A stretch of 64,000 nt of DNA. Source: Candidatus Latescibacterota bacterium. GTDB lineage: Bacteria; Latescibacterota; UBA2968. How positions within the stretch are numbered: position 1 is the stretch's first letter; each line of letters begins with the position of its first letter. Shown in pieces: positions 26,383 to 51,772 of this stretch. Made by a program: the position numbers and the translations under genes. Under the pieces are notes generated by a model that made no database searches, was not told the DNA's origin, and saw only the letters and a program-made list of their open reading frames with translations. The stretch is from assembly GCA_965204375.1 (NCBI GenBank), contig OZ241986.1:5184001-5248000 (forward strand), written 5' to 3'.

Positions 26383-26664
26383 TCACACAATCACATAGTC
26401 CTCGCGTTTTGGCACGGGGTGTTCGCGTTCGGAAATGCCTTCTATCCGCTTTTCGCATGCAGCACATAGATGATAATAACAGATGCGATCATCTTCCGGG
26501 TCAATCAGTTCCGACATTTTGGACCGCAACGCGAGAAATCGACTTTCATTTAAGTTACACTCAAAAACGCTTTTCTGCCGCCGCGATCCATAATTTTCCA
26601 TGAGTTTCATTACCCGCCGCAATCGGCGTTTGTCGGCAATATCGTAGGCTACTACTACAAGCAT
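26383..26664 (-). CDS. cas2: CRISPR-associated endonuclease Cas2
   Basis: VVAYDIAD, RRQKSVFEC, DRICYY.LC..C. Confidence 0.95.
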   Translation of the reverse strand: MLVVVAYDIADKRRLRRVMKLMENYGSRRQKSVFECNLNESRFLALRSKMSELIDPEDDRICYYHLCAACEKRIEGISEREHPVPKREDYVIV

Positions 26665-26682
26665 CGCGCTGGTCTCCAAAAA

Positions 26683-27684
26683 TTATCGAATTAAGAATGG
26701 CAGGTATGCCGTGTCTTCGCCGCGCAATAGGCGGATGAGACGACGGGCCTGGAACTCAAAGCATTGGCGATATGACACTTTTTGTACCTGTCCACCGGGT
26801 TGCAGATATTGGACTTCAACAGCGACGCGATCTTGATAGGCACGAATTAACTGCGTCCGTCCATCGCCACATAAGAACACACCCCCGTCGCGCTGTTCAA
26901 AGTCTTCCTTTTTTATTTGTCCGTGATTCAGCAAGTCCAGTACCATTGCATCTACAATCACTGGGCGAAATTCTTCCATCATGTCCAGCGCGAGCGAGGG
27001 GCGGCCGTAATCTACGAGATGCAGATAACCGATATAGGGGTCCAAGCCCACGCGCAAGACAGCCGATTCCAGGTCCGAAGATAGGAGCGTATAGCCAAAG
27101 CTCAACATGGCGTTGACTGCATCTTTGGGTGGGCGGCGCGTGCGTTTGACAAAGGGAAATGCAGTGGGTAAAAATTGACCGAGCGCACCGAAATAGGTCG
27201 CGGTTGCAGCACCTTCGATTCCGCGCAGGGCATCGGCATTGTCAGCGCGGTCTATCTGTTTTAAGAGTGCGCGCAGTCGCCGTGCGGTGTGGGCGATGTC
27301 TCGATTTCGGCGTCGGGCAAGGCGCATGATCAGGGTGCGCATGTTGCGGATTTTGCCCGATACAAATCCCCGTGCGGCACCCAGTCGAAACGCTTCGTCT
27401 TCGTAGCGACGGTATTGCATTTGCCGCAGAATCACATTGCGGCCCTGCGGTCCGACCAGTCGCCCGCGATAACTGCCCGTGGTGCTGAGGAGTACGAGGT
27501 CAATGCCCTGCATTAGCGCGGTGTGCATGGCCGCAGGTGTTATTCCGATGTTGCCAAATAAGACCATCTGGTGCAGATCATACGCGGGTGATGTGTGGAG
27601 TTTTTTTTTGCCTTTCCACACGGTTAATCGCTCGCCTTCACGGCGTACCTGTGCGCCGGTTTCTGTGACATAGAGTACGGACAC
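26683..27684 (-). CDS. cas1: CRISPR-associated endonuclease Cas1 (stand-alone, no RT fusion)
   Basis: LRGIEGAA...YF, RRPPKDAVNAMLSFGYTLL, GYLH, SLALDMMEEFR. Confidence 0.96.
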   Translation of the reverse strand: MSVLYVTETGAQVRREGERLTVWKGKKKLHTSPAYDLHQMVLFGNIGITPAAMHTALMQGIDLVLLSTTGSYRGRLVGPQGRNVILRQMQYRRYEDEAFRLGAARGFVSGKIRNMRTLIMRLARRRNRDIAHTARRLRALLKQIDRADNADALRGIEGAATATYFGALGQFLPTAFPFVKRTRRPPKDAVNAMLSFGYTLLSSDLESAVLRVGLDPYIGYLHLVDYGRPSLALDMMEEFRPVIVDAMVLDLLNHGQIKKEDFEQRDGGVFLCGDGRTQLIRAYQDRVAVEVQYLQPGGQVQKVSYRQCFEFQARRLIRLLRGEDTAYLPFLIR

Positions 27685-27685
27685 T

Positions 27686-29611
27686 TCACACCACCTCAAC
27701 GCCTATTTGCAACCGTCCCGCGTCATCCGCTGTTACAACCCAAACGCCTGTGGTGATTTTGCCTTTGCGGTCGCGCAATAAGTCGCGCATTTCATCTTCT
27801 GCACGCGATAGGTCGGCCATGACCTGTGCGGCTTGCTGGCGCAGTGCGACGTAACGATCTATAGCTTCGCGGTTTTGCGGTTGATCCACACGTCCCATGC
27901 CGGCTGTAAATGCCGGGTCGATATGTAGCAGAGGAGAGGGGTACCCGCCTTCGGGCAAGTCAAATTCGCAGTTGCAGGGGACGGTTTCGACGAGGTCGGG
28001 CAGGTGTTTGCGGATTTTTGGACAGCCAATGGGATTCGGATGCAGGCGTTCGATCTGATAATCGGTTACTTCGGCTTTGTAATCTGCACACGCGCCGATT
28101 ACTGCGTGTAAAAAAGCGCGTCCCTGGTCGTCGAGATGTCCGAATACGCATTTTAAGACGTGGCGTTCGATGTGTACCAGATGGGCGGTTGTATAGGCTT
28201 TTTCTGTGAGTGCGCGAATGACGGCGCATCCCTTCATGATGGGTTGATATTCTGGAAAGGCTTTTTCTAAATCGACTTTTTGCAGGGGTGTGTGGGGTTT
28301 CCCTCCGCCCAGGCGAGAAACTGCATGGTCAAATGCCTGTGTGTCTATGGGTTTGATGTCGCGCAAGACGCGGTCCTGGTCTGCGAGTGCGTGTCCTTCT
28401 GTGTCGATAAATAGCGCACGTCGTCCTGTTTTGCGGTGGATGCCCAGGGGGAGTTTGATCAAATTGCCGAGTTCATCTTCTCCAACGGTGTCTTGTTTGG
28501 GAAACCATTCCCACTGCAATTCCTCTGATGGCGGTCCAAATCGCTTTGCAAATGCGCGACCATAAGCACGCAGGTCACATGCGGGGATGGGTTTTTCAAA
28601 GAAGAGCCATATATGCGCCCCTTTGTTTCCGCTGTCTTCGATGTGGACGGGGAGGTTGAGGGATGCAAAGCCAGCGCATACCCGTCGGATGTCTTTGCAT
28701 ACTTGTTCGCGCAACGCATCCATTAAGGTGTTGTTTTGCAGTGCTTTGTTGAGGGTCTCTTTTTTTATGTCGATGTCCAGGGCTAAAAATTGCGCTTTGT
28801 CCAGGTCGAATATCGGATATACCCCCACAGTCGTGTCTCCGCGGAGGTGGGATTGGATCACGCCCTCTGTGAGGGGTTCGCGCACGGGGACATAGCCGGT
28901 TTTTCCGTCTTCATCAATCCATTGCCGAGCGTACACGTCTTTGCGCGCGGTGAATAGCCGCAAGATGTGTGCGGCAGTATCAGGTTGGTTTTTGATTTCT
29001 GCATCTGGCAAGGTCTGGGATGTTTGCAACTGCGCGCCGACGAGTTGTTTGCCCGCAAGTGCGCCTGCATGGTCCGGGTCGTGCTCAAGTACTCGTCCGT
29101 AGAGTTCTTGCGCGAGGCCCATCATGCCATCTTCTTCGTATAGATGCGCGAGTTCAAAGAGTCCTTCTATGTGATCTGCATGATGCTGAATGAGGGTTTG
29201 CAAGCGCGATTGCGCGAGGCCCGTTTCATTGCGGTCTGCGTGTAACATTGCCAGTCCAAATAGGGATTTGGCATCGTCAGGGCACTGAGATAGGTGCGCC
29301 TGATAGATTTCAACGGCTGACTGGATGTCGTTCAGTTCTTCTGCGAGTACACCCCATTCACCAAACGCATCATCTACTGGTAGATCGCGCCACCGATTGA
29401 GCAATGTCTGTGCTCTGTCCTGTTCGCCCCGGATGAGGGCTATGCGGACCATCAATTGATGTGCGCGATTGCATGCCGGATCGCGCGCACAGGCTTCCGA
29501 AGCCAATGCCTCCACGCCATCCACGTTGTTTTGTTCTAAAAGTACCTGTGCTTTTTCACAGAGGGTATCCACGAGAGATGTGGGGGACGATTCTATTGCA
29601 GGAGTTGTCAT
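27686..29611 (-). CDS. CRISPR-associated primase-polymerase (CAPP): TPR repeats + AEP domain + Cys-rich PriL-like C-terminus
   Basis: N-terminal TPRs. AEP motifs LDID, SGNKGAHIW, GNLIKLPLG. C-terminal GCAVI...C..Y...PIGCPKI...CNC. Directly upstream of cas1. Confidence 0.88.
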   Translation of the reverse strand: MTTPAIESSPTSLVDTLCEKAQVLLEQNNVDGVEALASEACARDPACNRAHQLMVRIALIRGEQDRAQTLLNRWRDLPVDDAFGEWGVLAEELNDIQSAVEIYQAHLSQCPDDAKSLFGLAMLHADRNETGLAQSRLQTLIQHHADHIEGLFELAHLYEEDGMMGLAQELYGRVLEHDPDHAGALAGKQLVGAQLQTSQTLPDAEIKNQPDTAAHILRLFTARKDVYARQWIDEDGKTGYVPVREPLTEGVIQSHLRGDTTVGVYPIFDLDKAQFLALDIDIKKETLNKALQNNTLMDALREQVCKDIRRVCAGFASLNLPVHIEDSGNKGAHIWLFFEKPIPACDLRAYGRAFAKRFGPPSEELQWEWFPKQDTVGEDELGNLIKLPLGIHRKTGRRALFIDTEGHALADQDRVLRDIKPIDTQAFDHAVSRLGGGKPHTPLQKVDLEKAFPEYQPIMKGCAVIRALTEKAYTTAHLVHIERHVLKCVFGHLDDQGRAFLHAVIGACADYKAEVTDYQIERLHPNPIGCPKIRKHLPDLVETVPCNCEFDLPEGGYPSPLLHIDPAFTAGMGRVDQPQNREAIDRYVALRQQAAQVMADLSRAEDEMRDLLRDRKGKITTGVWVVTADDAGRLQIGVEVV

Positions 29612-29713
29612 GGGGAGATTCCTTTCTGTTTGGGGAAAAATAATGCAATCACACTGGGGTTTGTCTGTGGATTGCGTTTACACATTTTTTAGCAGTTTTA
29701 ATTTTTTCTTCAA

Positions 29714-29742
29714 AAATTAGTGCTCAAATGTTCACTTGTCAA
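29714..29742 (-). promoter_or_regulatory. Putative sigma70 promoter for CAPP-cas1-cas2
   Basis: TTGACA-17 nt-TAATTT on the minus strand. Confidence 0.55.
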
Positions 29743-29750
29743 GATAAAAA

Positions 29751-29774
29751 AGTAAACGGGTAGTCCCTCCTGAT
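29751..29774 (-). repeat. Partial degenerate CRISPR repeat (5' 24 nt)
   Basis: ATCAGGAGGGACTACCCGTTTACT versus array ATCAGGA(A/G)GGATTACCCGCTTACT. Confidence 0.75.
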
Positions 29775-29780
29775 TGTTTC

Positions 29781-29948
29781 TTAGCCTCCAATGAACGCTT
29801 TAGCGATTGACCACAATACCACAATAGCCATGATATGCGGTATGTGTATAATCAGCGCAAAAATTACGGCGAACACGAATATACACAACACCACTATATC
29901 TACCAATAAACGGACAATGAGATCTGCTGTGTTATTGGGCTCTTTCAT
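29781..29948 (-). CDS. Unannotated 55-aa hydrophobic (about 2 TM) small protein between two degenerate CRISPR repeats
   Basis: Hand translation: MKEPNNTADLIVRLLVDIVVLCIFVFAVIFALIIHIPHIMAIVVLWSIAKAFIGG*. The ATG directly follows the repeat end ATTGAAAC, with GAGG 9 nt upstream. Confidence 0.6.
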   Translation of the reverse strand: MKEPNNTADLIVRLLVDIVVLCIFVFAVIFALIIHIPHIMAIVVLWSIAKAFIGG

Positions 29949-29985
29949 GTTTCAATGCCTCAGTAGTCGGGTAATCCTTTCTGAC
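29949..29985 (-). repeat. Isolated degenerate full-length CRISPR repeat
   Basis: GTCAGAAAGGATTACCCGACTACTGAGGCATTGAAAC, 33/37 identical to the leader-distal repeat variant. Confidence 0.9.
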
Positions 29986-30001
29986 GAACGCCCTATTTAT
30001 C

Positions 30002-30017
30002 TGCAAGAAGCGTGCCA
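30002..30017 (-). promoter_or_regulatory. sigma54 (-24/-12) promoter P1
   Basis: TGGCACG-CTTC-TTGCA, exact consensus. Confidence 0.85.
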
Positions 30018-30124
30018 AAAAATAAAAAATCCTCAAAAAAATGAGGATTTTCTTTTTTTATTCTTTTTTCGCGGTTTTTTTTGTAAAAAAATCCCAAACA
30101 GGCATTCACCAGAGGGGAACAGAC

Positions 30125-30158
30125 GTGCAGAAATGCTCACATTTGTGCAAAAATGCAC
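30125..30158. promoter_or_regulatory. Paired palindromic enhancer-like sites for P1
   Basis: GTGCAGAAATGCTC and GTGCAAAAATGCAC. Confidence 0.7.
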
Positions 30159-30169
30159 GCCTATGCACA

Positions 30170-33100
30170 GTTTCAATACCCCAGTAGTCGGGTAATCCTT
30201 CCTGATTATCATCGACTCATACATCGCAGAGACCGCACCTTCAGGGTTTCAATACCCCAGTAGTCGGGTAATCCTTCCTGATAAACCAAAGCAGGATAAA
30301 AATGACGCCTGAAGATTTTAGTTTCAATACCCCAGTAGTCGGGTAATCCTTCCTGATGTGAGAAATTCCCTGTCAGAATTATTGATAGTTGTAAACCTAA
30401 TCGTTTCAATACCCCAGTAGTCGGGTAATCCTTCCTGATGACGACGGTTCAATGGAAGTCGATTCACCTTGCATGTTTTACAGTTTCAATACCCCAGTAG
30501 TCGGGTAATCCTTCCTGATGAATGGTCATATCAGTCATCGTAATACTTCCAATTTAGAAGTGTTTCAATACCCCAGTAGTCGGGTAATCCTTCCTGATTC
30601 AATTCACCAGAGACTTTAGGCTTATTTTACAAGATTCGTTCGTTTCAATACCCCAGTAGTCGGGTAATCCTTCCTGATCGTTGCAGAATTTGAGTTGGAA
30701 GTAGTGAAGGACATGTATGTTTCAATACCCCAGTAGTCGGGTAATCCTTCCTGATAGTTTTAGACCACGATTGGAAAGACCATCGCGTAAGACCAGTTTC
30801 AATACCCCAGTAGTCGGGTAATCCTTCCTGATCGGCACGAATTTGAGTGTCGTTGATTTGGGAAAGGAATTGTTTCAATACCCCAGTAGTCGGGTAATCC
30901 TTCCTGATCTTATGCTGCGATTAGGGCAATTCACGCTGGCCTTGATGATATGTTTCAATACCCCAGTAGTCGGGTAATCCTTCCTGATCAGATGCAAAAG
31001 CTCGCAGCAGCATACGCATTTGATCCGTTTCAATACCCCAGTAGTCGGGTAATCCTTCCTGATCACCAATTACAAAGGAGGTGTAAAATGGCAGTGATGA
31101 GGTTGGGTTTCAATACCCCAGTAGTCGGGTAATCCTTCCTGATCTGCCGAAACCATTGTTGGCTTGGGTTGCACGACGTTGCTGACGTTTCAATACCCCA
31201 GTAGTCGGGTAATCCTTCCTGATGAGGTTGCTATTCGTGTTGGGCAGCGGGTCAATGAGGAAATGTTTCAATACCCCAGTAGTCGGGTAATCCTTCCTGA
31301 TTGATCATTCAGGACTTACGATCAATACCACAGGATTTTTGTTTCAATACCCCAGTAGTCGGGTAATCCTTCCTGATGCAGGACGCAAAAGAAATTGAGT
31401 ACGCGTATCCCATATAGTTTCAATACCCCAGTAGTCGGGTAATCCTTCCTGATTGGCATGTGGTCTCCTTGTGCGGGAAATTTTGAGCAATCTGGTTTCA
31501 ATACCCCAGTAGTCGGGTAATCCTTCCTGATTTTGCAGTTCCGCATCTGCATTTTCCAACTCACATCAAGTTTCAATACCCCAGTAGTCGGGTAATCCTT
31601 CCTGATCAATTACCAATGAAAAGTAAATCAAAAGTAACATATGATAAGTTTCAATACCCCAGTAGTCGGGTAATCCTTCCTGATAATTGAAACTGTCATC
31701 CCGGCCGTGAAGAAGCGTAAGTAGTTTCAATACCCCAGTAGTCGGGTAATCCTTCCTGATTTGACCTTCCCGCCGAAGTGATTGACCTGTTTCGCGTTAT
31801 TGAAACGTTTCAATACCCCAGTAGTCGGGTAATCCTTCCTGATGACTCTCAGATGGCAACTATAGATCGGCTGTATGCTGGTTTCAATACCCCAGTAGTC
31901 GGGTAATCCTTCCTGATCTCAATCCGAATCGGACAGCTACTCGCACGCGCGAAAAAGATGTTTCAATACCCCAGTAGTCGGGTAATCCTTCCTGATATAC
32001 CTCCAGAACAACCGTGAGAATATCCTGCCGAAGTCCGCGTTTCAATACCCCAGTAGTCGGGTAATCCTTCCTGATATGGGAAGGTATTCACCTGATGATA
32101 TTGCGCGGGCAAGTTTCAATACCCCAGTAGTCGGGTAATCCTTCCTGATAAAATGAGCACAGCGTGCTGCTGACCATTCCGTTCACGTTTCAATACCCCA
32201 GTAGTCGGGTAATCCTTCCTGATATTGGCGTGAGGGCCGATGATCGCTGGGCGCCAAGCAGGTTTCAATACCCCAGTAGTCGGGTAATCCTTCCTGATAT
32301 TGCCGGTGGTGTAGCAGCTGGTGTTGGGGGTCTCGGGTTTCAATACCCCAGTAGTCGGGTAATCCTTCCTGATGAGGACAACTCGCCGGTTAATTGGGAC
32401 AAGGCAGATTGTTTCAATACCCCAGTAGTCGGGTAATCCTTCCTGATGGGGAAGGGGCAGACCAAGAACTTAACTGGTGGGAAGTTTCAATACCCCAGTA
32501 AGCGGGTAATCCCTCCTGATTTCGATGTTTTCCACACGTCGCTATGAGCATCATATCACCACGTTTCAATACCCCAGTAAGCGGGTAATCCTTCCTGATT
32601 ATTTTGATATGCAGATGTCACACGTCTATCTGTCTGAAGTTTCAATACCCCAGTAAGCGGGTAATCCCTCCTGATCAGGCATGCGCGCTGGCAAGGCATT
32701 GCTGGACGTGAAAGGTTTCAATACCCCAGTAAGCGGGTAATCCCTCCTGATTTATGGGTGCATTAGCGCAGAGTTTGATTGGGTAGATGATGTTTCAATA
32801 CCCCAGTAAGCGGGTAATCCCTCCTGATATGTAAAATCTTTCGGCGTAAGCGTTCGCGTAGAGGAGTTTCAATACCCCAGTAAGCGGGTAATCCCTCCTG
32901 ATTAGGAACGGAATCAAATTCAGCATAGGGCGCAGAACAATGACGTTTCAATACCCCAGTAAGCGGGTAATCCTTCCTGATAAGACAGCAAAACAAAGTA
33001 CGCTTGGGCCTTCTGCTATTAGTTTCAATACCCCAGTAAGCGGGTAATCCTTCCTGATCCGAACGGCTAAATTTAGCTTTCTATTTCTTCGTTTCGGTTT

Positions 33101-35961
33101 CAATACCCCAGTAAGCGGGTAATCCTTCCTGATGAGATATTAAGGCGTGCCGGACACGCTTGGCTTCCCATTTGTTTCAATACCCCAGTAAGCGGGTAAT
33201 CCTTCCTGATTTCTGGGCGTCAAACGACCTAACTTACTCATCCGACTATGTTTCAATACCCCAGTAAGCGGGTAATCCTTCCTGATCCGCATTATATACG
33301 GACAATCAAGAGACTGTTCTCAAGTTTCAATACCCCAGTAAGCGGGTAATCCTTCCTGATGAAATCCCAACTTGGTAACGCTTGCGCGTCTCGAAAATCT
33401 GTTTCAATACCCCAGTAAGCGGGTAATCCTTCCTGATTACGTGACGCCAACTTCGGAATACACCCCAGCGAATGGAGGTTTCAATACCCCAGTAAGCGGG
33501 TAATCCTTCCTGATGATCGTATCAAGCAGGCACTCGAAGATGGGTGGCATCAGAGTTTCAATACCCCAGTAAGCGGGTAATCCTTCCTGATGGTCGAGGT
33601 AAAGATAGAGGCGTTTGACCACAAGACAAAGTTTCAATACCCCAGTAAGCGGGTAATCCTTCCTGATTATTTCGCACAAATGCAAGTGGAAGTAGTTGTG
33701 TCACAAGTTTCAATACCCCAGTAAGCGGGTAATCCTTCCTGATTGAAGCTGAAATTTCGGCGACTGCTAACATCTTTGACATGTTTCAATACCCCAGTAA
33801 GCGGGTAATCCTTCCTGATAATTTGATCAGGCACTTGCACAGTTGCGACTCATCGAAAGGTTTCAATACCCCAGTAAGCGGGTAATCCTTCCTGATGGGA
33901 CAATCTCAAATTGCCGGACGGTGAGCAGATGAAAATGTTTCAATACCCCAGTAAGCGGGTAATCCTTCCTGATCTGCTCCCCGAACCGATGGAACAGAGC
34001 GACGAAATCACCGAGTTTCAATACCCCAGTAAGCGGGTAATCCTTCCTGATAAAGAGGGGCAAAAAACGGTTGACCTCTTACGCTCTTACGTTTCAATAC
34101 CCCAGTAAGCGGGTAATCCTTCCTGATGCGACTAACATCTTTGACATCTCCGACATTGCTTGGGAAGTTTCAATACCCCAGTAAGCGGGTAATCCTTCCT
34201 GATCGGAACTGAAGATGATGACGAGTGCGCGGTCCTGGGATAAAGTTTCAATACCCCAGTAAGCGGGTAATCCTTCCTGATAAATAGACGCGAAAGTAAC
34301 CAAAGTTTTTGACGGCAAAATGTTTCAATACCCCAGTAAGCGGGTAATCCTTCCTGATAGGGCAAGGTGGAGTCATCGTAAATATGCTTCAAGTTTCAAT
34401 ACCCCAGTAAGCGGGTAATCCTTCCTGATTTAACCATCCCCTTTTAAAAGCATGTGTAAGTGGATCAAGTTTCAATACCCCAGTAAGCGGGTAATCCTTC
34501 CTGATGAGCGATGAGAAGAAAGCTCGACTGCAAAACGTGATTGAGTTTCAATACCCCAGTAAGCGGGTAATCCTTCCTGATGAAGTGAGGGTGTATATAG
34601 GCGGTGCTTGGATGGGTTTCAATACCCCAGTAAGCGGGTAATCCTTCCTGATTCCTTATAGAGGATGGCTACGATAATCAGATGGGTTACAAGTTTCAAT
34701 ACCCCAGTAAGCGGGTAATCCTTCCTGATGAGGAGCGCATTAGCGATTTGGAGGTTGCGCTTAATGAGTATATTAAAGTTTCAATACCCCAGTAAGCGGG
34801 TAATCCTTCCTGATGAACATGGCTATTGAGTTTGGACCTGACGTTGAGTTGGTGTTTCAATACCCCAGTAAGCGGGTAATCCTTCCTGATGATTGGGCGC
34901 GTGCAGTGGTTGCGTGTGCTGATGAAGATAGTTTCAATACCCCAGTAAGCGGGTAATCCTTCCTGATTTCTCCGTTTGTGGTGGTTCTGTGACTGTCTTT
35001 TTCCAAGTTTCAATACCCCAGTAAGCGGGTAATCCTTCCTGATTATGTGTGCAAAACTTTGTCGAGTCTGGTCTTGAACGAGTTTCAATACCCCAGTAAG
35101 CGGGTAATCCTTCCTGATTTGCACACTTCAGTCTGGAAAAACTTTCAACGTGAACAGTTTCAATACCCCAGTAAGCGGGTAATCCTTCCTGATGACGATA
35201 TGGTGGAACAAGTACTGGCGGCGGCGCACAGCATGTTTCAATACCCCAGTAAGCGGGTAATCCTTCCTGATTGGATGAGTGGAAGCAGAGTTGCTTGGCT
35301 TGCGAAGAGTTTCAATACCCCAGTAAGCGGGTAATCCTTCCTGATTTGGCGGAGTGTGTTACGGCCACAACAAACCGTAGTGTATAGGTTTCAATACCCC
35401 AGTAAGCGGGTAATCCTTCCTGATGAGCAGGCTGAGTGGATGAGTGGTTTGGGTGGTGAACGTGGAGTTTCAATACCCCAGTAAGCGGGTAATCCTTCCT
35501 GATGTGAGCGCGGCGGGATTGAGTTGGACAGAACGCGGCGCAATGGTTTCAATACCCCAGTAAGCGGGTAATCCTTCCTGATTATCAGGAGTAGTTGGTA
35601 TAGCGATTGAATCCCTATTGGTTTCAATACCCCAGTAAGCGGGTAATCCTTCCTGATGGACGGGTATTTTGTGGCGACACTCCACCGGACTACTACAGTT
35701 TCAATACCCCAGTAAGCGGGTAATCCTTCCTGATAACGCGGTTGAATGGTCTCGCACGTCTCGCGGAGGCCAGTTTCAATACCCCAGTAAGCGGGTAATC
35801 CTTCCTGATTCACTGACGGTATCGCGAGGGACAAATCAGTTGGTAGATTTGTTTCAATACCCCAGTAAGCGGGTAATCCTTCCTGATATCATTGACCCGT
35901 TTGGGGAAGAGGAAGTTTTTATTTGTTTCAATACCCCAGTAAGCGGGTAATCCTTCCTGAT
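30170..35961 (-). CRISPR. CRISPR array, 76 repeats of 37 nt (ATCAGGAAGGATTACCCG[CT/AC]TACTGGGGTATTGAAAC) and 75 spacers of about 34-48 nt
   Basis: Repeats counted by hand. The 3' ATTGAAAC end defines minus-strand orientation, with the leader on the right. Confidence 0.98.
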
Positions 35962-36260
35962 ACCATCTGCGTTATTTCCTCTCTCGCAGACGGTTACAAG
36001 GCGGTTTGCGACTCAGGCCATTTTGACATACAAAATCCTCCAAAAAATGAAAATCTGCGTTCAAGTTTATGCTCATAATACACACTCCTGCAAAAGGTTA
36101 GAAATTTGCGACCCACCAGAACATGAGGAAATGCCTCTAATCCCTACGCGCGTTATTCACTACACGCTCAAACTGCCAAAGTGACATTGACAGACACATC
36201 TGGGTCGCATCCAATGGCTTTAAATAGTCTGCAATCTGTCAAATAATATGTTCACTCTGA
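35962..36260 (-). promoter_or_regulatory. CRISPR leader
   Basis: Non-coding region adjacent to the 5'-most repeat, with repeated TGCGA/TCGCA motifs (tgcgaccc...gggtcgca inverted pair). Confidence 0.75.
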
Positions 36261-47946: not shown

Positions 47947-48297
47947 TCAATCTCCAAACCACTCGGCTACTTTTTCTTTTGCATGGGCTTTAATCTCCGG
48001 CGTTACATGAGCCGCTACGGTTGCGAGAGCTGCGACCAGCACACCCAGATCATCGCCGTAGCCGACGGCGGGGGTCACGTCGGGAATCGCGTCAACTGGG
48101 AAGATGAAGTATCCCAGTGCCCCTTTGATGACTGTTTTGGCCCAGAGTGGCGTATCAGGAGCCTGCGCGGTGTAGTAGAGTGATAGGGCATTCTCTACGA
48201 CTTTCCGTCCCGCAGGGCTGGCGAAGTTGAGCAGTTTTTTCCAGAAGCTGTCCTGAGAGTAATATTTCCCATACCCCTGCTTGTTTCGATTGTTCAT
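47947..48297 (-). CDS. YkvA/DUF1232 family small membrane protein
   Basis: ALGYFIFPVDAIPD.TP.VGYGDD. GGAGG RBS. Confidence 0.88.
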   Translation of the reverse strand: MNNRNKQGYGKYYSQDSFWKKLLNFASPAGRKVVENALSLYYTAQAPDTPLWAKTVIKGALGYFIFPVDAIPDVTPAVGYGDDLGVLVAALATVAAHVTPEIKAHAKEKVAEWFGD

Positions 48298-48360: not shown

Positions 48361-48376
48361 TGCAATCCGCGTGCCA
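48361..48376 (-). promoter_or_regulatory. sigma54 promoter P2 (upstream of ykvA and the cas10 operon)
   Basis: TGGCACG-CGGA-TTGCA. Confidence 0.85.
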
Positions 48377-48535: not shown

Positions 48536-49492
48536 TCACACTTCATCCTTCACACTTCTTCCTTTTATAGCGTATTGTCCCATCCCAAAGCTGGTCCACT
48601 TGCCCACATGCATTGGTACGCCCAGTGCCAGTAGTGGGTGGAATTGTGTCATGTCGCCTTCAAAGACGACATTTCCTGTGAAACCGCTCACGTTCATGCG
48701 TCGGTTCTTGCGGTTTGAATATCGCTCCCATGTGCGCCAGGTCAAGTTGTGGGATGTGGTTTGAACATTCTCTGCCGTTGAGATATAATCGGCATAATCC
48801 AAATCTGGCGGTCCATCTGCGTGAAATGCGGCCAATGCTGAATACCGCCGCAACAGTCCGCGTATGAGCACGGGGAAATCCAATCCGCGCTGCAATATCC
48901 GGTCTGCTTTGAGTTGTGTGGGGGTTACAAATGAGAGGCGAATCCGGGATCCGATTTTGTTGTGCATTAAATCGCTCGCTGCCAGATGTGGCACATCTTG
49001 TAACATCTCGCTCGTCCCGTCGTACACCGTCTGCCATGTTCCATCCGGGTGCAGAGCTTCGCCTGAAATGAGATCGCATTTGCCGCGTCCGCGTCCAATA
49101 CCTGTGTCTCCCATTCGCTGGAAGGTGTAGATGAAATAGGGCATGTAATTCAGTGCTCGGCCAATGAGGGTCAGACCAATCGCAAACTCGTCGTCCGGTG
49201 CGTAATCGGTTTTGGTTTCCAATGGCGGTTCGATCAAATAGGGATGGGGTGCCTCGCTGTACCCGCGAAAAATGCCTTGTGCATTCTCCACTGGCGTGTC
49301 AAATATGTATGGATACACGCATTGCGTCCGAACGAGACATCGCTCGCACTCGCCGTGTTGCACAATACAAACCGCACGCTTAAATGACACGCCAAAAGCC
49401 CCGCGAAATGTGGAGCCTTTATAGGGTGGCAGGCGCAGATTATCTCGTGCTTTGAAGTGCAGGCGCATATATGCGAATTCGAGTGTAAACAT
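48536..49492 (-). CDS. cas6: CRISPR processing endoribonuclease Cas6
   Basis: GSTFRGAFG, CxxC..C, PHPY, C-terminal G-loop HVGKWTSFGMG. Confidence 0.93.
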   Translation of the reverse strand: MFTLEFAYMRLHFKARDNLRLPPYKGSTFRGAFGVSFKRAVCIVQHGECERCLVRTQCVYPYIFDTPVENAQGIFRGYSEAPHPYLIEPPLETKTDYAPDDEFAIGLTLIGRALNYMPYFIYTFQRMGDTGIGRGRGKCDLISGEALHPDGTWQTVYDGTSEMLQDVPHLAASDLMHNKIGSRIRLSFVTPTQLKADRILQRGLDFPVLIRGLLRRYSALAAFHADGPPDLDYADYISTAENVQTTSHNLTWRTWERYSNRKNRRMNVSGFTGNVVFEGDMTQFHPLLALGVPMHVGKWTSFGMGQYAIKGRSVKDEV

Positions 49493-49793: not shown

Positions 49794-49809
49794 TGCAATC
49801 TGCGTGCCA
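49794..49809 (-). promoter_or_regulatory. sigma54 promoter P3 (upstream of cas6)
   Basis: TGGCACG-CAGA-TTGCA. Confidence 0.85.
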
Positions 49810-50059: not shown

Positions 50060-51736
50060 TCAAGTCAAGCCATATTCTTTGGCTCTTCTACTCAGCGTTG
50101 ACCGATCCATACGTAGCATCTTCGCGGCGTGTGCAATAACTCCCTGCGTTTGCTCCAGCGCGTCTTGAATGATCTTTTTCTCAAATTGCGCTACCTGCTC
50201 GTCGAACGAACCCTGAAAAATATCCGTATCCTCTTGATCAAATAACACATCGGGCGTAATCCATTGATCTTCTGGTGTCACAATAGCTGCCCGTTCAATA
50301 GCATTCTTTAACCCTCGGATATTGCGGGGCCAATCATAAGCCTGCAACGCACGCATAGCGTCCTCTGTAAAACCCGCAAATTCCTTTCCTTCATTCTCAG
50401 AAAAACTTTTCAAAAAGTGATGGGCAAGCAATGGAATATCTTCTCGTCTTTCCTTGAGTGGTGGCAACTCAATTTTTAAAGAAAAACGGCTTAGCAGATC
50501 GCCTCGAAACGCGCTTTCCTCTGTATTCAGGTTTTCATTGGTCGCGGCAATAAGGCGCACATTCACCGATATATCTGTCTCGCTGCCCATCCGTCGTATC
50601 ACACCGTCTTCCATGACTCGTAACAACATGCCCTGCACATCGGGTCGAAGCGAATTGATTTCATCGAGAAAGAGCGTGCCATTATTTGCTTGTTCAAACA
50701 AACCCTGACGCTGCTTGTTTGCGTTCGTAAATGCTCCCTTTTCATGACCAAACAATTGACTTTCCGCCAGATCTCCTAATCTCGCACAGTTTTCTGGGCG
50801 ATATTTTCCTGTTCGATCACTCGCTTTGTGCAGTGCAGAAGCAACCAGTTCTTTGCCAGATCCGGTGGAGCCTGTGATCAATACTGAATGACTATAAGGC
50901 GCATATAGTTTAATGTCCTTCTTAACATCCTGAATGCTGTCACTCTGACCAATAATTTCTGGAAACGCATCTTCTGCGCCCGATGCAATCCGCTCTATAT
51001 ACTGTTCTTGCATCTGCTTTGCGTAATCATTGACTGCCTGCTGTGTCAATCTCAGGGTGTCTTCAGTATATTGCCCGGGGGCTACAAATTGCACCACATC
51101 GCGCAATCGACAAAATGGCACGTCAGCCAATTCGATGCTCACAGTATCGCTCATGACTTTCTGGCCCCTGACGATTAGAGATTCCTCCTGTCCTGTACTG
51201 CGATTAAATACCATAATCGGTTCAGGCTTCTCTGGTGGATAATAATAGGACGCATCGCTTCGTTCAATCTCGGGCACGGAAACCAGAACGTGATAAAGCC
51301 GGTCTTGTGGCCGACCAAAAAAGTGAATGGCTGCCCCCAGTATAAAGCCCATAGATTTTCTTCCACCGGCAAGCGAGCAGTGCAATGCCACTTGATCATC
51401 CTGCGTCAGTGTCTCTATCAATTCAAAAATGCCGTCTCGCGCAATGCGATTCTCGTCAGAGGTGCGGATATCGTCTAAAAAGTTGCCCTTGGCGTCTTCG
51501 AATACGTGTATCTGATCGGTGTCGAAAACAGGCTTGGGATCGATATTGTAATCCGACAGCATCTTTTCAAAGCGGCCCTCGTCTAATAGGCGTTTCTGGC
51601 AGATTTCTTTGCCTACGGTTGTCGTTATCACAAATACTTCATTGATGGGCACCTTGCGCTGGACACGCAATGCCCAGAAGGTTTCTGTCATAACTTGTGG
51701 TGTGTTGCCGACTACAGCGACCAATTTGTGTTGCAT
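50060..51736 (-). CDS. CARF (NE0113/Csm6-like)-sigma54 AAA+ activator-Fis HTH fusion
   Basis: CARF: VVGNTPQVMTET, SLAGGRKSM, LYHVLVS. AAA+: GSTGSGKE, LFGHEKGAFTNA, LFLDEI, WPRNIRGL. HTH: AAKMLRMDRSTL. GAGG RBS before MQHK (alternative ATG at 51757). Confidence 0.92.
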   Translation of the reverse strand: MQHKLVAVVGNTPQVMTETFWALRVQRKVPINEVFVITTTVGKEICQKRLLDEGRFEKMLSDYNIDPKPVFDTDQIHVFEDAKGNFLDDIRTSDENRIARDGIFELIETLTQDDQVALHCSLAGGRKSMGFILGAAIHFFGRPQDRLYHVLVSVPEIERSDASYYYPPEKPEPIMVFNRSTGQEESLIVRGQKVMSDTVSIELADVPFCRLRDVVQFVAPGQYTEDTLRLTQQAVNDYAKQMQEQYIERIASGAEDAFPEIIGQSDSIQDVKKDIKLYAPYSHSVLITGSTGSGKELVASALHKASDRTGKYRPENCARLGDLAESQLFGHEKGAFTNANKQRQGLFEQANNGTLFLDEINSLRPDVQGMLLRVMEDGVIRRMGSETDISVNVRLIAATNENLNTEESAFRGDLLSRFSLKIELPPLKERREDIPLLAHHFLKSFSENEGKEFAGFTEDAMRALQAYDWPRNIRGLKNAIERAAIVTPEDQWITPDVLFDQEDTDIFQGSFDEQVAQFEKKIIQDALEQTQGVIAHAAKMLRMDRSTLSRRAKEYGLT

Positions 51737-51772
51737 ATCGTTATCCTCTTGAGACATCTCATTGACTTGTAT

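Follow-up and report, generated by a model that had tools for sequence, protein, structure and literature searches.

Results

Organization of the locus

The window, i.e. the whole stretch of 64,000 nucleotides that was analysed, carries on its minus strand a type III-D CRISPR-cas locus, which is listed below in gene order, read from the activator to cas2. The site of interest is the trailer end of the type III-D array, directly upstream of the operon formed by a primase-polymerase (AEP-TOTE) gene, cas1 and cas2.

50060..51757, minus strand: activator gene with CARF (Cas_NE0113), sigma-54 interaction AAA+ and HTH_8 domains, from domain matches
49795..49809, minus strand: P3, putative sigma-54 promoter with enhancer boxes, from a motif scan, 5' of cas6
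49492..48536, minus strand: cas6
48362..48376, minus strand: P2, putative sigma-54 promoter with enhancer boxes, 5' of the DUF1232 gene, the IS transposase gene and the cas10 operon
48297..47947, minus strand: gene of a DUF1232 membrane protein of 116 aa, the first gene behind P2
46989..47855, minus strand: IS4/IS5-family DDE transposase gene, between the DUF1232 gene and cas10
35996..30170, minus-strand transcription: main CRISPR array of the type III-D locus, with about 77 repeats, each 37 nt long and ending ATTGAAAC
30170..30206, minus strand: last full repeat of the main array, ATCAGGAAGGATTACCCGACTACTGGGGTATTGAAAC, with a 5-bp hairpin (-7.3 kcal/mol)
30125..30158: pair of enhancer-like palindromes, GTGCA-N4-TGCAC, located 110-155 nt 5' of P1
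30024..30053: terminator-like hairpin, bidirectional, its stem of 12 pairs having a T-run at either side
30017..30002, minus strand: P1, putative sigma-54 -24/-12 promoter, TGGCACgcttcTTGCA, exact match
29949..29985, minus strand: first repeat of the trailer mini-array, degenerate (33/37 against the array consensus)
29781..29948, minus strand: open reading frame (ORF) of 55 codons plus stop, MKEPNNTADLIVRLLVDIVVLCIFVFAVIFALIIHIPHIMAIVVLWSIAKAFIGG
29751..29774, minus strand: terminal partial repeat, ATCAGGAGGGACTACCCGTTTACT, 20/24 matches, counted by hand
29714..29742, minus strand: TTGACA-N17-TAATTT, possible sigma-70 promoter of the adaptation operon, read by eye
27686..29611, minus strand: TPR and AEP-TOTE primase-polymerase gene, from domain matches
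27699..26683, minus strand: cas1, after the primase-polymerase gene
26679..26383, minus strand: cas2, likewise after the primase-polymerase gene

The Cas10-like gene has a GGDD motif at residue 292 and is followed by RAMP genes, the genes of two CARF proteins and the leader. The main array (30170-35996) contains two repeat variants, leader-proximal ...CCCGCTTACT... and trailer-proximal ...CCCGACTACT...; the switch between them lies near 32480, and some repeats right after it differ at one more position.

The trailer repeats

The first-pass annotation had described a small ORF set between two degenerate repeats, and the geometry is as it stated. The isolated repeat (29985..29949) has the residue of the array consensus at 33 of its 37 positions, the ATG at 29948 abuts ATTGAAAC without any gap and opens 55 codons that end with TAA at 29783..29781, and behind this stop come GAAACA and the partial repeat (29774..29751). 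A Shine-Dalgarno-like GAGG motif is present 9 nt 5' of the ATG, and an in-frame TGA stands two codons 5' of it. Together, the ORF and GAAACA make an insert of 174 nt (29948..29775).

The proposal that the repeat hairpin is weakened agrees with the predicted folds: the substitutions G26A and T29C strike the 3' arm of the 5-bp stem, and this stem is present in the fold of the consensus repeat (-7.3 kcal/mol) but not in that of the variant, which is a different one at -3.5 kcal/mol. To the same two substitutions the first-pass annotation had ascribed the Shine-Dalgarno motif. In the alignment of five genomes G26A, which creates GAGG, is specific to this genome, whereas T29C is common to G013, a relative devoid of the ORF; moreover the consensus GGGG at this position is already purine-rich.

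As in mini-arrays, repeat-like units are found here outside the array, the distal one being degenerate (20/24), and they have apparent orthologues in the relatives G013, G016, G018 and G020. G018 and G016 each have a degenerate terminal repeat that seems to be the orthologue of the terminal partial repeat. There is also a weak repeat-like stretch inside the ORF (19/37), a score that 406 of 5000 shuffles reach, its gapped score being reached by 54 of 1000. A reading of the ORF as decayed repeat-spacer units was rejected, since this internal stretch is not significant.

A set of three putative sigma-54 promoters sharing enhancer boxes

The sigma-54 promoter that had been placed before the isolated repeat is found as an exact TGGCACgcttcTTGCA (TGGCAC-N5-TTGC) at 30017..30002. 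Assuming the canonical spacing, its transcript would start about 6 nt 5' of the repeat, in agreement with the first-pass annotation. The window contains three exact TGGCAC-N5-TTGC sites—P1, P2 and P3—all of them on the sense strand. With one mismatch allowed the 8 sites of the window are not above chance: the expectation is 5.2, and the same count is attained in 16 of 100 shuffles. For the box GTGCA-N4-TGCAC, the window has 8 occurrences where 2.3 are expected, a number that none of 100 shuffles attains, and 7 of these 8 boxes lie upstream of P1, P2 or P3, at a distance of roughly 100-200 nt. At the scale of the 6.34-Mb genome, 59 exact sigma-54 motifs are found, and a box stands 40-260 nt upstream in only three of them, namely P1, P2 and P3.

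At P1 are thus gathered the -24 GG/-12 GC spacing and the upstream boxes, in a genome that holds an AAA+ activator gene and rpoN (193.7 bits). P1 looks like a credible sigma-54 promoter, member of a three-promoter set with common enhancer boxes. These boxes are the presumed binding sites of the CARF-sigma-54 activator, and we infer from the motif distribution that this protein would drive P1, P2 and P3.

A full-length match to the activator is found near the array in all five relatives tested, with 51-86% identity. Its sigma-54 contact loop reads GAFTNA, the canonical loop being GAFTGA. Its ligand and its DNA specificity are putative and deduced from the domain names; because of what is generally known of CARF domains, the ligand is presumably cyclic oligoadenylate, made by Cas10. 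The DUF1232 gene, first behind P2, has a counterpart in four of five relatives (83-87% identity, same locus) and was not found in G013, a 91% complete genome; its product is a candidate conserved membrane component of the system. In G015, a DUF1232 paralogue of 49% identity is seen just 5' of the trailer mini-array. The Cas10-like gene matches in only two of the five relatives, at 30-31% identity, so that the interference module has been exchanged. The IS located between P2/DUF1232 and cas10 may have uncoupled the effector operon from P2 in this strain.

The P1 module (30018-30169) is flanked by a repeat on both sides and occupies therefore the position of a spacer. Its terminator-like hairpin would end the main pre-crRNA transcript just 5' of P1. 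A 34-nt stretch of the module, including the hairpin, is 79% identical to a part of the main-array leader (36028-36061), and this identity hints that P1 might derive from a duplicated leader.

A conserved module and a variable slot in the relatives

A query of 471 nt over the whole region retrieved four genomes of the same genus, G020, G016, G013 and G018. The enhancer boxes, the terminator, P1 and the first repeat match in these four at 85-89%; beyond the terminal repeat the sequence, TTGACA-N17-TAATTT included, matches at 90-97%. Among the matches listed for this query none falls on the ORF part; 178 weaker matches lie further down. Over the five genomes the P1 module and the first repeat have a mean column identity of 89%: the -24/-12 elements are invariant, the boxes largely so, and the hairpin nearly, with a single substitution, in G013.

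The ORF is absent from all four same-genus genomes that have the P1-plus-repeat module; lack of conservation in relatives was part of what the first-pass annotation had set as refuting its reading. Ahead of the conserved TTGACA stretch, G016 and G013 show one degenerate repeat and nothing more. G018 has there a spacer of 38 nt and a degenerate repeat, and G020 an unrelated segment of about 104 nt and a degenerate repeat (L012, about 1714-1816). The same segment of about 104 nt is found between two repeats, without P1, in G015 (L016, about 1386-1490). Its core gives 41-48 matches in each of G000 (the genome of the window, included in the search), G015, G016, G018 and G020; the query was offset, and the multi-copy matches fall within the segment. 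This segment is an interspersed repeat element with predicted hairpins. The slot contents thus vary in length from 0 to 174 nt and share nothing between genomes.

Of 168 genomes searched in the phylum, six have a sigma-54 motif followed, after 8-30 nt, by a repeat core. Five of them are G000, G013, G016, G018 and G020; what was found in the sixth, G050, does not appear repeat-like.

Two further observations were made in G015. A 42-codon ORF with a hydrophobic stretch is located between the DUF1232 paralogue and the trailer mini-array (L016, about 1020-1150), and the TCTTGACAAG junction is duplicated on both sides of the repeat-element-repeat unit.

The 55-codon ORF and its peptide

At 40%, the GC content of the insert is below that of the window (50%) and of the neighbouring genes (53-55%), which suggests a foreign origin. 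The encoded peptide is very hydrophobic, as had been noticed: its GRAVY is 1.67 and its 19-residue windows go up to a Kyte-Doolittle mean of 3.3. AlphaFold2, run without alignment, models one helix over residues 4-54 (mean pLDDT 90.6); hydrophobic peptides commonly give a model of this kind, which carries little information.

Dinucleotide shuffles (n=5000) of 173 nt of the insert were used as chance tests. Of these, 10 of 5000 produced a closed ORF of 55 codons or more in one or another of the six frames, 189 of 5000 kept frame 1 open over 55 codons, and a GRAVY of at least 1.665 was never obtained (0/5000; mean 0.41, sd 0.33). As both the closed frame and the hydrophobicity are this rare in shuffles, the ORF is not an artefact of base composition, and with such statistics it looks like a real small membrane-protein gene.

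The ORF had been called hidden. It does lie between the repeats, but it was not unpredicted, since the protein collection already contains this very 55-aa sequence from this contig and some gene caller has thus predicted the peptide.

No relationship of the peptide emerged. It matches only itself in its own genome, and it returned the query alone both from a protein search over 5.8 billion clusters and from an exhaustive phmmer search over 1.84 billion representatives. The best non-self E-value among 60 relatives is 0.054, so that no conservation of the ORF was found there. Pfam gave a sub-threshold Chordopox_L2 only (19.1 bits for a cut-off of 27), the atlas search yielded no usable match, and metagenome contigs and viral contigs contained no match to the peptide. 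In genome_contigs, a transporter-like ORF of 1079 aa (L019) agrees with the peptide within a transmembrane segment, at 16 of 20 residues and 36 of 50 nt, the differences falling mostly on third codon positions. As this match grew from an 8-residue seed, among 366 candidates, it was rejected as probably due to chance.

The possibility, raised in the first-pass annotation, of a phage gene captured as an aberrantly long spacer met no support: no phage or plasmid DNA matches the succession repeat, ORF, repeat, and none of the viral contigs contains the repeat. At the nucleotide level, the best match of the insert in its own genome scores 34.2 bits, and shuffles reached 40.1, so that neither a source nor a target stands above the shuffle level. 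Within the locus the insert has matches of 10-11 nt only, and no guide-target pair. Rfam, applied to four loci, gave only sub-threshold matches. Over all these searches the ORF is an orphan, unique to this genome.

Possible transcription from P1 into the adaptation operon

A terminator scan from P1 to the primase gene detected no terminator-like site. In the RNA library X1, a contig of 431 nt covers 29423-29811, that is from the 3' end of the ORF into the primase gene. No X1 contig lies over 29816-29945 or beyond 29998, and these gaps in cover prove nothing. X1 contigs give neither starts nor strand nor level, and DNA carry-over is possible, so that we take the 431-nt contig as a weak hint of read-through from P1 into the primase gene. 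It does show that the insert is present, in part, in a second data set. X1 comes from another study than the libraries X2-X4, which are near-identical, DNA-like runs that may themselves be the source, and bring no independent support. The stretch TTGACA-N17-TAATTT was not among the sites of the consensus scan for sigma-70 promoters, because of its weak -10.

Discussion

The sequence details given in the first-pass annotation all hold, and its interpretation finds partial support. The signal-controlled promoter is the conserved and the more interesting part of this site, and the peptide is less so. Taken together, the comparisons favour, with a probability of about 0.55, a P1 module that fires into a decayed mini-array before the adaptation operon, the slot of this mini-array holding a foreign small gene that landed there. 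Cyclic oligoadenylate made by Cas10 would turn on the CARF-sigma-54 activator, which would switch on P1 along with the promoters of cas6 and of DUF1232/cas10. P1 would then fire into the decayed one-unit mini-array, and its transcript would run on into the primase-polymerase, cas1 and cas2 genes, adding a signal-dependent expression to the constitutive expression of the adaptation operon. The slot between the first and the terminal repeat would be variable, and the unique, low-GC insert of 174 nt that it holds here, made of one complete ORF, would most likely be a foreign small membrane-protein gene. Being the first cistron of the P1 transcript, the ORF would be co-induced with the adaptation genes. 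A possible role for its product is that of a toxin or abortive-infection factor at the membrane. That the peptide works as an inducible membrane protein has roughly even odds; the toxic or abortive role may exist and is the less likely of the two. How a complete gene came to sit exactly between the repeats is a point for which this reading offers no explanation.

The rival readings differ mainly in what they make of the ORF and of the repeat that precedes it. The ORF could be a non-functional passenger, the relic of a foreign or decayed DNA in a slot that collects junk, neither translated nor selected. Its orphan status in every search, its GC content (40% for 53-55% in the neighbouring genes), and the fate of the same slot elsewhere—taken by an interspersed element in G020 and G015, left empty in G013 and G016—all go in this direction, as does, weakly, the repeat-like stretch of 19/37 within the ORF. 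A relic would nevertheless not be expected to fill the slot with a complete frame from ATG to stop, preceded by a GAGG at a workable distance, when shuffles so seldom give an ORF of that length and never such a hydrophobicity; we consider the passenger unlikely, while leaving it an appreciable weight. A more elaborate view, put forward in the first-pass annotation, is that the repeat was co-opted to start the translation of an inducible membrane toxin, or else that Cas6 cleavage 8 nt 5' of the ATG removes the Shine-Dalgarno motif and acts as a safety or addiction switch. The geometry is as described, the G26A change creating GAGG is specific to this genome, cas6 belongs to the same sigma-54 promoter set and the peptide is strongly hydrophobic. 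But P1 firing into the repeat predates the ORF and is kept without it in four of four relatives, which argues that repeat and promoter were not shaped for the ORF; T29C is present in the ORF-less G013, the consensus GGGG was purine-rich already, and the ORF exists in one genome only. As for the switch, it finds no comparative support, and the loss of the hairpin in the predicted fold of the variant repeat makes an efficient Cas6 cleavage doubtful. We hold both versions of this view for quite improbable. The same low credit is given to the more inclusive scheme in which the activator, bound to cyclic oligoadenylate, would turn on cas6, the effector operon, the adaptation genes, the DUF1232 protein and a 55-aa abortive-infection peptide whose translation Cas6 would tune.

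Two other readings bring in a regulatory RNA. One takes the pair of repeats for a regulatory mini-array, from which a crRNA-like RNA would be made by Cas6 together with the type III complex; it would bear the AUUGAAAC 5' tag, beginning at 29956, and have the first 30-40 nt after the repeat as guide, and the ORF would be incidental. According to the available part of Shmakov et al. 2023 (PMC10120712), 10-14% of type III systems have, near the array, mini-arrays or standalone repeat units whose distal repeat is degenerate, and the slot of G018 does contain a spacer of normal length (38 nt). Against this stand the two relatives with one repeat and no spacer, the slot contents unshared between genomes, and the insert itself, which has no genome match above the shuffles (34.2 for 40.1 bits) and matches the locus over 10-11 nt only; this makes a guide function very unlikely. 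In a cassette of the type I toxin-antitoxin kind, an antisense RNA would start inside the ORF on the plus strand and end at the bidirectional terminator. The ingredients can be pointed out: a promoter-like TAGCCA-16-TATAAT on the plus strand at 29825-29852, a plus-strand terminator at 30026-30051, about 190 nt downstream of it, and a hydrophobic peptide whose 55 aa fit a toxin of less than 60 aa. Yet the promoter scan gives 4 sites for 1.7 expected, which may be chance in AT-rich DNA, and the terminator is kept in genomes that lack the ORF, so that we give hardly any credence to such a cassette.

Several known systems resemble this site in part. With the mini-arrays, as presented in the accessible text of PMC10120712, it shares one or two repeat-like sequences beside the array, the distal one degenerate, and their conservation in related loci; the same text describes mini-array regions as hotspots of cargo shuffling. 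In the functional mini-arrays presented there, the spacer has a normal length and is partly complementary to a promoter, and the effectors are DNA-binding ones of type I, II or V. By contrast the slot studied here ranges from 0 to 174 nt, the promoter is a sigma-54 promoter of its own, the system is a type III system targeting RNA, and in this genome a whole ORF is contained. A mini-array spacer would have a normal length and partial complementarity to a promoter or a gene of the locus, whereas the present slot has 174 nt and matches of 10-11 nt in the locus.

CreTA is the second term of comparison. In the available portions of PMC8501985 and PMC9458426, the crRNA-like CreA guides Cascade to repress the promoter of a toxin that is usually a small RNA; a variant with a protein toxin, also under effector-guided promoter repression, appears in the accessible part of bioRxiv 10.1101/2024.01.05.574328. 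From what these sources present, the likeness lies in degenerate repeats beside a CRISPR-cas locus, a small toxic product (here a candidate) and a proposed link to Cas proteins. The difference is that the candidate toxin lies between the repeats, that no guide-target pair was found and that the effector is of type III. In the portions of the literature available to us, no precedent was found for the control of a toxin mRNA by Cas6 cleavage. Type III effectors target RNA.

Type I toxin-antitoxin peptides and the type III membrane effectors controlled by cyclic oligoadenylate are a further term of comparison. Like them, the peptide would be a small hydrophobic helix that belongs to a defence locus and could, once induced, harm the membrane; unlike them, it has no homology to a family and no CARF or SAVED domain, and its control would be transcriptional and not allosteric.

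For the activator, the closest known system is RtcR, which the available parts of PMC4012209, PMC9650030 and PMC7790460 characterise as a CARF-domain sigma-54 activator of the RNA-repair operon rtcBA. As far as these parts go, both proteins combine a CARF sensor with an NtrC-like AAA+ sigma-54 domain and an HTH, and have a sigma-54 promoter—putative here—as target. Unlike RtcR, the present protein has a CARF domain matching the CRISPR-associated Cas_NE0113, its gene lies within a type III-D locus, and its presumed targets are the promoters of cas6, of the effector operon and of the array trailer. In our literature search we met with no description of a type III locus under the control of a CARF-sigma-54 activator.

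Mini-arrays and solitary repeats beside arrays were already known; what is seen here is a promoter, P1, that stands with its boxes in the position of a spacer and fires into the terminal repeats. The 55-aa ORF matters less: it indicates that the slot can capture cargo, in one genome, and allows no general claim. The locus-wide circuit of sigma-54 promoters and CARF activator is a more promising lead than the ORF. Should the activator sense cyclic oligoadenylate, then crRNA processing, effector synthesis and spacer acquisition would all come under feedback from interference; such a feedback, which we did not find described in the literature, would constitute a transcriptional arm of type III signalling.
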